From contig CAVNZM010000006.1 in assembly GCA_963693365.1 (NCBI GenBank), positions 1,054,001 to 1,118,000 of the forward strand: a DNA stretch of 64,000 bases, read 5' to 3'. The translations under genes were made by a program, and so were the position numbers. The notes under the pieces are model-generated. The model was not told the DNA's origin. It searched no databases and saw nothing but the letters and a program-made list of their open reading frames with translations. Below are positions 12,801-15,800 of the stretch, one piece after another (the stretch's first letter is position 1; the number at the start of each line of letters is the position of its first letter). This DNA is from Amoebidium appalachense (taxonomy: Eukaryota; Protista; Ichthyosporea).

Positions 12801-15800
12801 CCGCATGGTGTGCACATAGCCACGCAAAAGTGTTGCTTTGTGCACTGTTACAACAGACAATCCGCCCCTTCACTGTTTCGTCTCCTCCTCCCCCCCCCCC
12901 CCTCCCCTTCATCCTCCACCCCCCTCCCCTCCTTCCCTTGCCCCCCCCCCCCCTCCTCCCCCTCTTTCCTCCTCCCCCTTGCGCACTATCTCACCACGTG
13001 CCTTTCCACAGGAGCACATGACGCATGAGCTAGCAACCCAGTCCCTTTCGGCGGTTGGTGCGCTGAGCAAGAACTTCCTGCCCATCCTGTTCAACACCTA
13101 CCAGGCATCGAGGCCTGAGGCCAGGGCCATTATCATGGCGGCAATAAAGGAGGTCATGGGGGTGGCACCACAGCAGGTGCGTGTGGGGGTGTGTGGGGTG
13201 GGGGGGGGGGGGGGGGGGGGGAGGGGTGGAGGTGGGGGGGGGGGGGGGGATGGGGGGGGGGAGGGGGTGGGGGGGGGGGGGGGGGGGGGGGGATGGGGGG
13301 AGAGGGTGGGGGGTGGGGGTGGTGGGGGGAGAGGGGTGGGGGCGGTGGTGGTGGTGGGTGAGGGGGGGAGGGGAGGGGGGGGGGGTGACGCAGGAGGGAA
13401 GGGGTGGGGGTGGGATGGAAGGGTGTGTGTGTGTGTGGGGGGGGGGGGGGGGGGGGGATGGAGGGGGAGGGGGGAAGGTGTGTGTGTGTGTGTTGGGGGG
13501 GAGGGGGGGGGGGCAGGAGGGAAGAGGTGGGGTTGGTGGTGGTGGTGGCGGTGGTGTGTGTGTGGGGGGGGAAGGGGGGGGGGGGGGGTACGTGAGGGTT
13601 GGGGGGAGGGGGGGAGGGGGGGGGGGGGGCTGCGTGGGGGTGGGGGTGGGGGTGGGTGTGAGCGTGGGTGTGTGTGCGCATGTGTGTGTATTCGTGTGTG
13701 CGTATGTGCGTGTGTGCCCGTTAGGCACGTAAGGAGATTCGGTGATGGGTGGACAGCACGAATGCATAGGGGAGTTTTAGAGGGGTATGATTGGGGTGTG
13801 GAATGGAATGGGTGATGGATTGATGCATCTAGGAAGCCCACGCTTCAGTTTGGCACTGTGATTTGACTGGCTGATCGATTTTAACGGCTGCAGGTGATTG
13901 GCACATTCTTCGAGGGCATTGTAAGGAAGCTGTTGGAGGCTGGCACGGGTGAGCGCACAGAAAGTATGCGCCCCTCCCACCCTCCCTCTTCCCCTCTTCC
14001 TCTCTTCCTCTCTTCCTGTCCTCTCCCCCCCTATTAGCCTTCCCATCTCCCCCCCCCCCCCCCCCCCCCGTCCGGGGACAGAAAGGAACAGTCCATATGT
14101 GAGGTCGTTTTGGGCATCGGTACTTCGTGCTGCATATTATGCTATATTTTATTCTCCCCCCCCCCCCCCCCCCCCCCCCCCCCCCCCCCCCCCCCCCCCC
14201 CCGCCCTCCTTTACCCAGCCCCTTACTATCCTCTCTGTTCCCTCTGGCAGGCTGATGGCTCCACGATCTTGTTGCTCAAATGCTCTTTGCCGCTTGGTGG
14301 GGTGGGGATATGCGTGTGTGCATGTGTGCGTACGTGGGTGCGCGTGTGCATGCGTGTTTACGTGTTGAGGGTGCAATATTGTAATTCATTAGTTTTTTTT
14401 ATTTCTTGCCCCGGGGGGGGGGGGGGGGGGGGGGGGGGGGGGTTGCTGATGTGGTTATTGGCAAGAGGCATTTATCATGCGCCCCAAGTAAGATCTATAG
14501 GGTATGATCATGGGGATGGTCACCTTCTCTGATGCACACATTAGATAGTGAGTAAGGGATGTGTGTGGTCGCATGTTTCCCCTTAAAAAAATAATAAACT
14601 AACACTTTTTTGTGATTAACAGAGAGCCTGCAGGACATGCACGTGTTCATGGACCTACTGTTTGCAATGGTGCCCCGGCTGGAGGGTGACCTGCTGGCCA
14701 AATACTTCAAAGTCATTAAGCCTCACATGGTCGTACGTGGCCCAGGATTCTCCCCCTCTCCCCCCCGCCACCCCCCCCACAACACACACACACACACACC
14801 CCTCCTTCTCTCTCTTGTCCGTTCAGGTGCTAGCCCGTAAAAGAGGGAGACAAAGAACAAAGGAGGGACACGAGAAAATATTCAATGTAAATAGCTCAGT
14901 CACGACATTGCTAGTTTTCAGCAGGCGTTTTATTTCGCCCCACGTTTTCTTCCTCTCCCTTCCCTTTCCTCCCCCCCCTCCCCCCCCTCCCCCCTTTCCC
15001 GCTCCCTCCCTCCCTCTCCCCCTCTCCCCGCCTGCATAAGCAACCCTGCTCGTCTCTGATCAAGACGGGTGACCTACCCATGTTCAAGTGAAACAGTATC
15101 TGAGTTGGGTTTCGTTAACGAGGTGAATAGGTCGAAACTCGGGTACTGTGGATGACGTGGGCCCCCCCTGAGGATGGGCTCTGCTTATTATGCATACTCT
15201 TTATGTATGGCTTGCATTCTGCATCGTGTTATCCGTTTGTTCTTGTGTGCTTCGTACTTTTTGACTCATTCAAACCCCCCGCCTGCCCCTTCCTCCATCC
15301 CCTCCCCCCTCCCCCTTCCCCCCTCTCCCCCCTCCCCCTTCCCCCCCCCCCCCCCCTCCCCTCTCCCCTCCTCCCCTCCCCCCCTCCCCCCCCCCCCCTC
15401 CCCCCCACCCCCTCTCCCCTCCCCTTGCGGTGCCCTTCCCCGCTCCTACCTGTGACATCACCCACCCCTTTACCTGCATCCAATCAGGACGAGGACGGAG
15501 TGCTCCAGAAGCAGACCTACAAGGCATTGGCCCATCTGTGGGCCAGTGAGCTGCCCAGCCACCAGCACTTTGCTGCCAGCCACTTCGAGGCACTGAGGAA
15601 TGCTGTCACAGAGACGCTGCTGGCTGCTTCTGGATCGGCAAAGAAGGTGTGTCCATGTGTGTGGTGTTGTGTGGGTGTAGGCAGATGTACACATGGGAAG
15701 GAGCGCACAGACACAAGTCTAAACTCAGAGGGAGGTAAGGAAACACAAGGAGCTCCGATGATTGCGGGGTATCCGTTGGTGCCCCCCTTTGTGCCTTCTG

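Follow-up and report, generated by a model that had tools for sequence, protein, structure and literature searches.

The four structured cores found in the 64-kb window (the whole stretch of Amoebidium DNA that was analysed) are non-circularly permuted hammerheads of the SGC kind, a known class. Taken together, our reading, which we regard as rather more probable than its competitors combined, is that a scrambled (SGC) hammerhead core is completed from upstream into a predicted multi-pseudoknot that would cut after U15106, carried by what is likely a Penelope-like retroelement, non-autonomous and of Naiad/Chlamys type. That the fold derives from a hammerhead and is selected is very likely. The first-pass annotation had proposed a ribozyme or retroelement module of no known class, whose possibly pseudoknotted structure is selected on the + strand RNA. 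Selection on this strand and the pseudoknot are both upheld, and a hammerhead core does lie within a repeat, cleavage being predicted by analogy; however, the two invariant words, with the GUU|G site and with stem I, a helix that had escaped that annotation, identify an SGC-kind hammerhead (PMC10085705). What is new with respect to published SGC ribozymes is the split of the core between A9 and G10.1, plus its setting.

All 13 bases of the hammerhead consensus core (PMC3088659) are present in 4/4 cores, namely C3 U4 G5 A6 N7 G8 A9, G12 A13 A14 A15 and U16 H17. The sequence strings listed earlier were all found at their places, and CGAAA and CTGAGGA, described as invariant, are so in 4/4 cores and are words of the hammerhead core. 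All coordinates below are on the + strand unless indicated. In the 15-kb copy, the site GUU|G (15104-15107), GAAA (15134-15137) and CUGAGGA (15168-15174) follow each other in the type-SGC order, with S, G and C at 15104, 15134 and 15168 and equivalents in the other cores. Block S (15104..15109) consists of the GUU triplet and a stem I strand pairing with 15165-15167, and the cut is predicted after U15106 by analogy with hammerheads. GUU is one of the less favoured hammerhead triplets. A linker with a weak hairpin (15110..15127; 17-21 nt in the four cores) leads from stem I to stem II, followed by block G (15128..15149), with the stem II 3' strand, GAAA (G12 = 15134) and a stem III strand, and by block C (15165..15174), with a stem I strand and CUGAGGA (C3 = 15168, A9 = 15174).

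Around this core, stem I is short, with 3-4 bp (GGG/CCC at 15 kb, GGAG/CUCC at 43 kb), and is 2/6 paired in the 58-kb copy. The stem III strand ending in U16.1 (15093..15105) pairs with 15137-15149 over 13/13 positions. A 14-bp stem had been described here: thirteen pairs stand ungapped, and the fourteenth, U15106-A15136, corresponds to U17 and A14 of the hammerhead, two bases left without a partner in the ribozyme. A helix that bridges stems I and II at their far sides (5' strand 15077..15083, pairing with 15155-15161) is complete (7/7) in the 15-kb copy and in copy 43b, and is equivalent to helix 'I' of type SGC (PMC10085705). Near the far end of stem III, an invariant UGA (15089..15091) faces an invariant AUGA (15152-15155) in the alignment, and the two could possibly form tandem G-A pairs in a non-canonical, kink-turn-like bend. 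Two further helices are present: P1 (5' strand 15036..15046, pairing with 15176-15188 as 3 bp + 7 bp), part of the A9-G10.1 insertion in which the RNA ends lie, and the 7-bp hairpin P2 (15049..15069), immediately 5' of the stem II 5' strand. The nested helices reported at 15 kb were thus recovered (outer stem 7/7, hairpin 7/7, bridging helix 7/7). The junction-closing pairs 1.1-2.1, 10.1-11.1 and 15.1-16.1 are Watson-Crick in the 15-kb copy and in copies 43a and 43b when the upstream stem II strand is used; the 58-kb core has a G-U at 1.1-2.1 and broken stems. Since the junction pairs closed by the crossing helices are exactly those needed in a hammerhead, the two alternative folds considered in the first-pass annotation are unlikely.

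Concerning activity, we think it probable, by analogy with other hammerheads, that intact family members cleave at the predicted site. In the sequencing runs, the site is spanned intact by contigs of X12, a run guessed to be RNA, and neither a depth step nor a pile of loose ends marks it in contigs and depth, among the ends listed; the 5' loose ends among those listed are at 15151 and in the internal C-run 15162-15164. X12 depth on the element is ~200x that on the RRP12 exons, a level for which ~1x of DNA or pre-mRNA would suffice. In the small-share runs X17 and X19 the element is absent (0 contigs mapped, and 1 mapped only on a C-run). Intact X12 contigs with no truncation peak at the site, a stem I of 3-4 bp and numerous sense intronic copies would all suit a hammerhead-derived fold that is catalytically silent or nearly so, and serves as a structured handle for a reverse transcriptase or for RNA stability, the repeat spreading from uncut linear read-through RNA. 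However, RNA ends are not visible in contigs, and DNA may be present in X12. Moreover, a binding role would not need 13 catalytic bases to stay invariant while the stems turn over, nor would it call for this core in the tails of distant Naiads, and we hold such a silent fold to be improbable. For the cleaving hammerhead, the occurrence of sense copies in introns, as in RRP12, suggests that cutting would be slow, conditional or tolerated.

The repeat is non-coding and without ORF, 5'-truncated, partly tandem, and its 3' ends lie in C-runs. Its copy number in Amoebidium, a single-celled relative of animals, is roughly ten thousand according to read depth, summed depth reaching 0.37-1.4 million on the repeat vs 8-29 on unique flanks. 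The cores of the window fall into three subfamilies (15-kb, 43-kb and 58-kb). The 15-kb copy (15034..15280) comprises the ribozyme domain and a ~90-nt tail ending at a C-run, and its 5' end adjoins a C-rich tract. It lies in sense in a GT..AG intron (14733..15487) of an RRP12-like gene, as an X12 contig joins 14732 to 15488 and the exons upstream match Pfam RRP12_HEAT. Copy 43a (43125..43484) is 5'-truncated after a C-run, with its predicted cut after 43293, and is followed head-to-tail by a spacer and copy 43b (43485..43881), whose predicted cut, after 43731, is 438 nt from that of 43a, giving one permuted hammerhead per unit. The tail of 43b stops early in a C-run, and the spacer ahead of it belongs to the repeat unit because it is itself high-copy. 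The 58-kb copy (58352..58556, predicted cut after 58381) sits between PA28 exons, is 5'-truncated at the stem II 5' strand and has degenerate stems I and II. The nested pairings said to be kept by all four copies are therefore incomplete in two of them: truncation at ~58352 removes the outer stem 5' strand and the hairpin from the 58-kb copy, and the long stem of 43a is weakened next to the core.

The family also extends beyond the four copies first reported, as ~8 further 3' fragments occur in the window. These include a partial tandem behind the 58-kb copy (58554..58644, a sequence match), a 5'-truncated fragment with 99% identity to the 15-kb tail over 87 nt (5477..5583), and three 5'-truncated tail fragments each ending in a C-run (57877-57988, 58030-58145 and 58220-58294, spanning 57877..58294). 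A decayed copy retains the 3' half of the ribozyme domain on the - strand (36853..36919, a sequence match), and weaker matches correspond to diverged tail fragments (3971..4053, and 43921..44009, the latter ending in a C-run) and to a diverged stretch with a family-like tail (17841..18036, E 0.008). An exact 21-mer taken from the family had 0 matches in viral contigs and 0 in metagenome contigs.

Mobilisation of the repeat by a Penelope-like element is likely. Fixed 3' ends are combined with 5' truncation and with partial or head-to-tail tandems, and insertion at microsatellites, which for Chlamys are (C)n or (CA)n, is indicated by the C-runs: 10/10 3' ends, among the ends listed, continue into C's, in a window whose DNA is itself very rich in C-runs. 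Chlamys elements are on record as being 5'-truncated, forming partial tandems and targeting (C)n (PMC8557442), and 4/5 of the (C)n-targeting Chlamys consensus ends viewed finish in AAC + C's. In the mechanism that we propose, stems I, II and III as well as the bridging helix would form jointly, P1 and P2 being looped out between A9 and G10.1; G12 would act as the base and the G8 2'-OH as the acid, like in other hammerheads. Cuts in two adjacent units would free a monomer of ~440-460 nt, which would stay paired and could be re-joined or circularised; such a circular intermediate is a tentative suggestion. A Penelope-like reverse transcriptase would then use a nicked poly(C)/poly(G) target to prime at the C-run, and copying would run upstream, at times into the previous unit. 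Priming at the C-run followed by upstream copying could explain why 3' ends are fixed and 5' ends variable, and how partial tandems arise. By Pfam, neither a reverse transcriptase nor a GIY-YIG domain appears in 136 coding-like segments of the window (119 from beyond 25 kb, 17 from before). A genuine ribozyme mobilised by another enzyme, for instance a LINE-type element targeting C-tracts, would fit a window with no visible partner, and fixed 3' ends with 5' truncation also suit LINE/SINE mechanics; but the 10 ends listed carry no poly(A) tail, partial tandems and (C)n ends match Chlamys, and the fold matches Naiad tails, which makes this route quite unlikely.

The wiring of stem II distinguishes the repeat from an ordinary SGC hammerhead. 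The stem II 5' strand (15071..15076, G10.1 = 15071) comes from upstream and not from the bases after CUGAnGA; it forms 6/6 pairs in the 15-kb copy and in three cores overall, with G10.1-C11.1 present, and it covaries. It is conceivable that the bases after A9 form instead the weak stem II of an ordinary type-SGC ribozyme, with the upstream strand as a blocking or tuning switch, as natural hammerheads can have a very weak stem II and even a U-U first pair (PMC3088659). In the four cores this contiguous strand forms 1/6 (15-kb copy), 3/6, 3/6 and 3/6 pairs, its first pair is mismatched in 4/4, and the same bases pair in P1, leaving the ordinary arrangement with very little credit. With the stem II strand supplied from upstream, stem II is not contiguous with CUGAnGA, and therefore two extra helices and the RNA ends lie between A9 and G10.1. 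Eckert et al. assumed that CUGAnGA and stem II are separable by no more than 1-2 nt (PMC10085705), and our literature search found no active hammerhead with helices between A9 and G10.1. This junction does tolerate insertion, as indicated by the extra A10 of the CChMVd hammerhead (PMC1636495), and 14/69 distinct type-II hammerhead-shaped motifs among preselected viral and metagenome loci carry an extra U there.

The crossing helix, earlier said to covary, is 6/6 paired at 15 kb and, as stem II, shows two both-sided changes; it is degenerate at 58 kb. In a 4-row alignment, whose structure was drawn from the 15-kb copy and which, with only 3 subfamilies, is below R-scape grade, 89% of cells pair and 8/46 pairs are changed on both sides, against 33-46% paired and 0-2 both-sided pairs when partners are slid by 1-3 columns. 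The both-sided changes include 1 in stem I, 2 in stem II, 3 in stem III and 1 in the bridging helix. Core positions, a set chosen after inspection, are invariant across the three subfamilies at 16/17 vs 40/103 other positions (Fisher p 2e-5). At 15075, T>C has a share of 4.4-4.9% in three DNA runs, and A>G at its partner 15129 has a matching share of 3.4-4.5%, which need not mean linkage. A descriptor of the fold matches three window copies, all on the + strand, and is failed by the 58-kb copy; it gave 0 matches in 150 shuffled windows and 0 in 20,000 element shuffles. Among 195 loci picked beforehand because they carry these words in this order (124 viral + 71 metagenome), it passes 1/124 and 0/71, and the sole passing locus, L102, reads better as a canonical type II hammerhead. 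Strand-specific pairing, as first proposed, is seen in the 15-kb copy, whose long stem folds at -17.9 kcal/mol on the + strand vs -9.8 on the - strand and whose helices hold 4 G-U and 0 A-C pairs, not equal numbers; the helices of 43b show no strand asymmetry. The energy of nested folding is unremarkable (z = -1.0 on the + strand, -0.7 on the - strand), and stems I and II have near-zero probability in nested partition functions, models that cannot form pseudoknots. Pairing by chance within a structured SINE of recent origin, or inverted repeats in the DNA, would suit this z of only -1.0 on the + strand and the small number of independent sequences, but the absence of descriptor matches in shuffles, G-U pairs without A-C, and the lack of a tRNA or A box make it scarcely credible.

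Several other assignments were rejected. A tRNA-derived SINE finds 0 tRNA genes, no A box and only isolated B-box-like words, and an HDV-like reading of 'GGCTAAGGGGTC' has by eye no P3/P1.1. Rfam gave 0 matches at the gathering level in the window; the best partial one was Hammerhead_1 (14.2 bits vs 34, E 2.1), and weak matches to mir-981, sR47 and sR23 are attributed to chance. The Rfam partial match prompted a minimal hammerhead of type I whose stem III would be palindromic, but this arrangement lacks an upstream CUGAnGA and does not persist in the 43-kb and 58-kb copies. A canonical hammerhead spanning two tandem units fails, as no pairing exists between the bases that follow A9 and those that precede GAAA. 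Types I, II and III, with their circular order and nested three-way junction, disagree with the order S, G, C, and Rfam remains below gathering.

If it cleaves, this RNA would break the rule that CUGAnGA and stem II form one indivisible block, and current hammerhead descriptors would all miss a genomic class; this would explain why Naiad and Chlamys were scored without hammerheads, and would reopen whether the Penelope cycle needs ribozymes or ribozymes merely ride along. Non-circular permutations, previously a matter of environmental RNA, are hereby brought into a protist that can be cultured and that offers natural variants by the thousands, which makes covariation, cleavage and circle tests easy. 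The ichthyosporean copy is relevant to the question of whether the fold is older than animals or was acquired by transfer from arthropod hosts. The furthest-reaching version is doubtful: an active fourth hammerhead opening, a non-circular multi-pseudoknot with its RNA ends in the catalytic core strand between A9 and G10.1, would be the missing ribozyme of the N-terminal-endonuclease Penelope-like elements, of pre-animal age (Naiads and the ichthyosporean), driving a circular-RNA retrozyme of about ten thousand copies, many of them sense-intronic.

Type-SGC hammerheads (HRIMA-1 and SGC variants; Eckert et al. 2023, PMC10085705) share with the repeat the order S, G, C, all core bases, the crossing stems I, II and III as well as the helix bridging stems I and II at their far sides, helix 'I', whose need was established there by mutation. 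In the examples described in that source, block C is uninterrupted, whereas here it is split by an upstream stem II 5' strand, P1, P2 and the ends; the linker from stem I to stem II is typically ~3 nt against a hairpin of 17-21 nt, the length ~80 against ~155 nt, and the origin environmental sequence against a eukaryotic genomic repeat known from sequence. The pseudoknot (PK) hammerhead (Zhan et al. 2024, PMC11300833) likewise has the core with an altered periphery around stem II, but its A9-G12 and G10.1-C11.1 are the stem of one loop and its extra helix lies elsewhere. CChMVd(+) resembles the repeat in tolerating a bulge at A9-G10.1, which is a single extra base there and two helices with open ends here (PMC1636495). 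Non-LTR retrozymes, proposed as non-autonomous Penelope-like derivatives passing through RNA circles (bioRxiv 10.64898/2026.07.22.740005), also lack coding capacity, with units a few hundred nt long that each carry one hammerhead and occur as monomers and tandems; these are type I hammerheads described from animals, whereas the Amoebidium units have no type I hammerhead but a permuted one, and copies are common in introns.

Finally, Naiad and Chlamys elements, including non-autonomous Chlamys such as MRC1 (Craig et al. 2021, PMC8557442), share 5' truncation, partial and head-to-tail tandems, (C)n/(CA)n insertion and very high copy number with the repeat, and Chlamys 3' ends finish in AAC + C's, as here. 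Autonomous members differ in carrying an ORF, and in the portions of that article considered, no canonical hammerhead is reported in either group, only 'HHR_core' and 'half_core' marks, and the ichthyosporean lineage is not named for them. In the part of its supplement viewed, the five-helix wiring of the repeat, lying close to the 3' end in several Naiads, was recognised by eye in 6 of the 7 GCCGAAA matches that come first among 23, all in the Naiad file and with unrelated stem sequences, three being near-identical Acropora entries; the split-core fold was seen by eye in 0/7 Chlamys 3' ends viewed (Physarum + six green-lineage). The Amoebidium repeat joins a Naiad-like RNA fold to Chlamys-like ends, and what this instance adds is its ichthyosporean lineage and such ends.

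The four cores lie at 15034, 43219, 43658 and 58352, as the first-pass annotation had placed them, and each helix it proposed for the 15-kb copy pairs along its full length, with four G-U and no A-C pairs, in line with the claimed strand specificity. At 58 kb, the copy is 5'-truncated and has neither the P2 hairpin nor the 5' strand of the outer stem (P1). Among the 46 pairs of the four-row alignment, eight are altered in both partners, one of them belonging to P1, for which the 58-kb row, being truncated, offers no homologous sequence; with so few rows the covariation is suggestive only. 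The nested folding energy is unremarkable (z -1.0). Rfam gives no match at gathering level across the 64 kb, and the sole telling match of a relaxed search is a 14-bit partial Hammerhead_1 spanning the crossing helix and GAAA.

The fold had not been recognised as a known class, but its invariant words CGAAA and CTGAGGA are the core strands of the hammerhead. Counting GUU at 15104-15106, 13/13 bases of the hammerhead consensus (PMC3088659) are found in all four cores. The blocks follow the order site, GAAA, CUGAGGA, and thus do not form a circular permutation of the hammerhead; this is the order called type SGC (Eckert et al. 2023). The long stem corresponds to stem III, closed by U16.1-A15.1, and the crossing helix to stem II, closed by G10.1-C11.1, while stem I, overlooked at first, reads GGG/CCC at 15 kb and GGAG/CUCC at 43 kb. 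A 7-bp bridging helix (15077-15083/15155-15161) joins stems I and II at their distal sides. Where stem III ends away from the core, UGA faces AUGA, both invariant; the two may produce a kink-turn-like bend, in a register that is non-canonical in every copy.

If stem II were contiguous with CUGAGGA, its first pair would be mismatched in 4/4 cores and 1/6 to 3/6 positions would pair; with the upstream strand as partner, three cores form 6/6 pairs. The bases following A9 (15174) pair with the 5' end, closing P1, and P2 runs into the stem II strand, which places two helices, together with the ends of the RNA, between A9 and G10.1 (15071). The CChMVd hammerhead tolerates a bulge at this junction (PMC1636495), and of the 69 distinct motifs with a type-II hammerhead shape in the fetched viral and metagenome loci, 14 show an extra U there; we infer that whole helices are tolerated as well. 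One viral contig (L089) holds at least six type-II hammerhead-shaped motifs in 6 kb, each with the extra U.

A split-core descriptor, built after inspecting the copies, matches those at 15034, 43219 and 43658 on the + strand only; 150 windows shuffled in blocks and 20,000 shuffled elements gave no match. A slightly relaxed version was applied to 195 loci chosen beforehand because they carry these words in this order; one passed, and it reads as a normal type II hammerhead. Across three subfamilies, 16/17 core positions are invariant versus 40/103 others. Separately, a near-identical 83-nt match with GAAAC and CUGAUGA recurs in viral contigs (L001, L005, L024, L025, L032, L050, L059, L062, L064, L068); it fits neither the split-core pattern nor, by eye, type II, and may represent a further variant of the hammerhead or a coincidence.

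A contig of guessed RNA origin joins 14732 to 15488 by splicing, which places the 15-kb copy, in sense orientation, within an intron of an RRP12-like gene. This gene (800-25500, +) has many small exons, introns full of poly-C, poly-G and (CA)n, and several family fragments; a long tandem array at 22650-25000 (unit ~20 nt) includes TGCTTAT, the heptamer of the P1 3' strand. PA28 exons flank the 58-kb copies, and the 43-kb pair, upstream of a PCO_ADO exon, is only probably intronic because the guessed preceding exons are unconfirmed. One window gene is a 100% match to an Amoebidium parasiticum EukProt protein. A Mem_trans (PF03547) transporter (51045-54362, -) is identical to an Amoebidium EukProt protein, an intronless protein kinase ORF among intron-rich neighbours (27644-28609, -) is a possible retrocopy, and another ORF (38423-39031, -) bears a PAN-like domain.

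High copy number extends to the spacer between the two 43-kb copies, and many copies end at the C-run that follows the tail whereas others continue past it, which gives a unit of ~440-460 nt arranged head-to-tail. About eight further fragments in the window are 5'-truncated, and 10/10 of the 3' ends listed run into C's; no partner ORF was found within the window. Summed contig depth in three DNA runs is 0.37-1.4 million on the element versus 8-29 on unique flanks, a measure that overcounts and gives no copy number. Taking the window as typical, its four cores in 64 kb would extrapolate to ~12,000 in a genome of 202 Mb, as published for the genus (PMC11244446); the text and searched supplements of that paper do not mention Penelope, SINE or ribozyme. 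In sequencing run X1, a contig carries telomere-like TAGGG repeats inserted within stem III (joint 15145 to 15135).

Most likely, the RNA would adopt an SGC-like split-core fold and cut after U17 (U15106), with G12 (15134) as the base and the G8 2'-OH as the acid, by analogy with the hammerhead (PMC11300833). A pair of such cuts, 438 nt apart, would release a monomer available for re-joining or circularisation, a route proposed for non-LTR retrozymes (bioRxiv 10.64898/2026.07.22.740005), and a Penelope-like enzyme, primed at the C-run, would copy upstream. Contigs of run X12 (guessed RNA) cross the predicted site uncut, neither a depth step nor a pile of loose ends occurs there among the contig ends listed, and the short stem I and common sense intronic copies also count against cleavage. 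Any cleavage would therefore probably be slow or conditional, or missing from many copies. At 15165 and 15175, X12 contigs show loose ends of 135 and 255 nt, attached on the upstream side of the C block, that might derive from a related or partner element.

Naiad and Chlamys elements are 5'-truncated, partly tandem and described as without canonical hammerheads; Chlamys targets (C)n and (CA)n and spawns non-autonomous multimers (Craig et al., PMC8557442). Of the 23 GCCGAAA hits in that supplement, the first seven were compared by eye, and six of these, all in its Naiad file, match the fold; three of the six are nearly identical Acropora entries assigned from the following headers. Their common order is P1, P2 hairpin, stem II strand, bridging helix, stem III, GUA/AUA site, stem I, short linker, stem II, GAAA, CUGAnGA. 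By eye, the split-core fold is absent from 7/7 Chlamys ends inspected there; an AAC terminus followed by C's is found at 4/5 (C)n-targeting Chlamys ends and 5/10 ends of the Amoebidium repeat. The same supplement's Physarum-Pp1 and Pp2 carry, near the element ends, CUGAAGAG with CGAAAC ~75-90 nt downstream, an arrangement resembling a hammerhead core in which the stem II region is long.

The literature searched, with subscription papers sparsely covered, describes type-SGC hammerheads in Eckert 2023 alone and contains no description of SGC-like ribozymes in retroelements; nor did we find one of a hammerhead split at A9-G10.1, a further extra-helix source being cited in a 2026 paper. The bridging helix resembles helix 'I' of type-SGC ribozymes, which is required, as judged by mutation (Eckert et al., PMC10085705), and the Amoebidium RNA would be predicted to behave, and to cleave, like a hammerhead of SGC topology. 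However, Eckert et al. assume that the stem II strand directly continues CUGAnGA (PMC10085705), whereas the Amoebidium repeat is split at A9-G10.1. As it departs from this defining feature, we regard it as a new variant of the SGC hammerhead rather than a member of the type.
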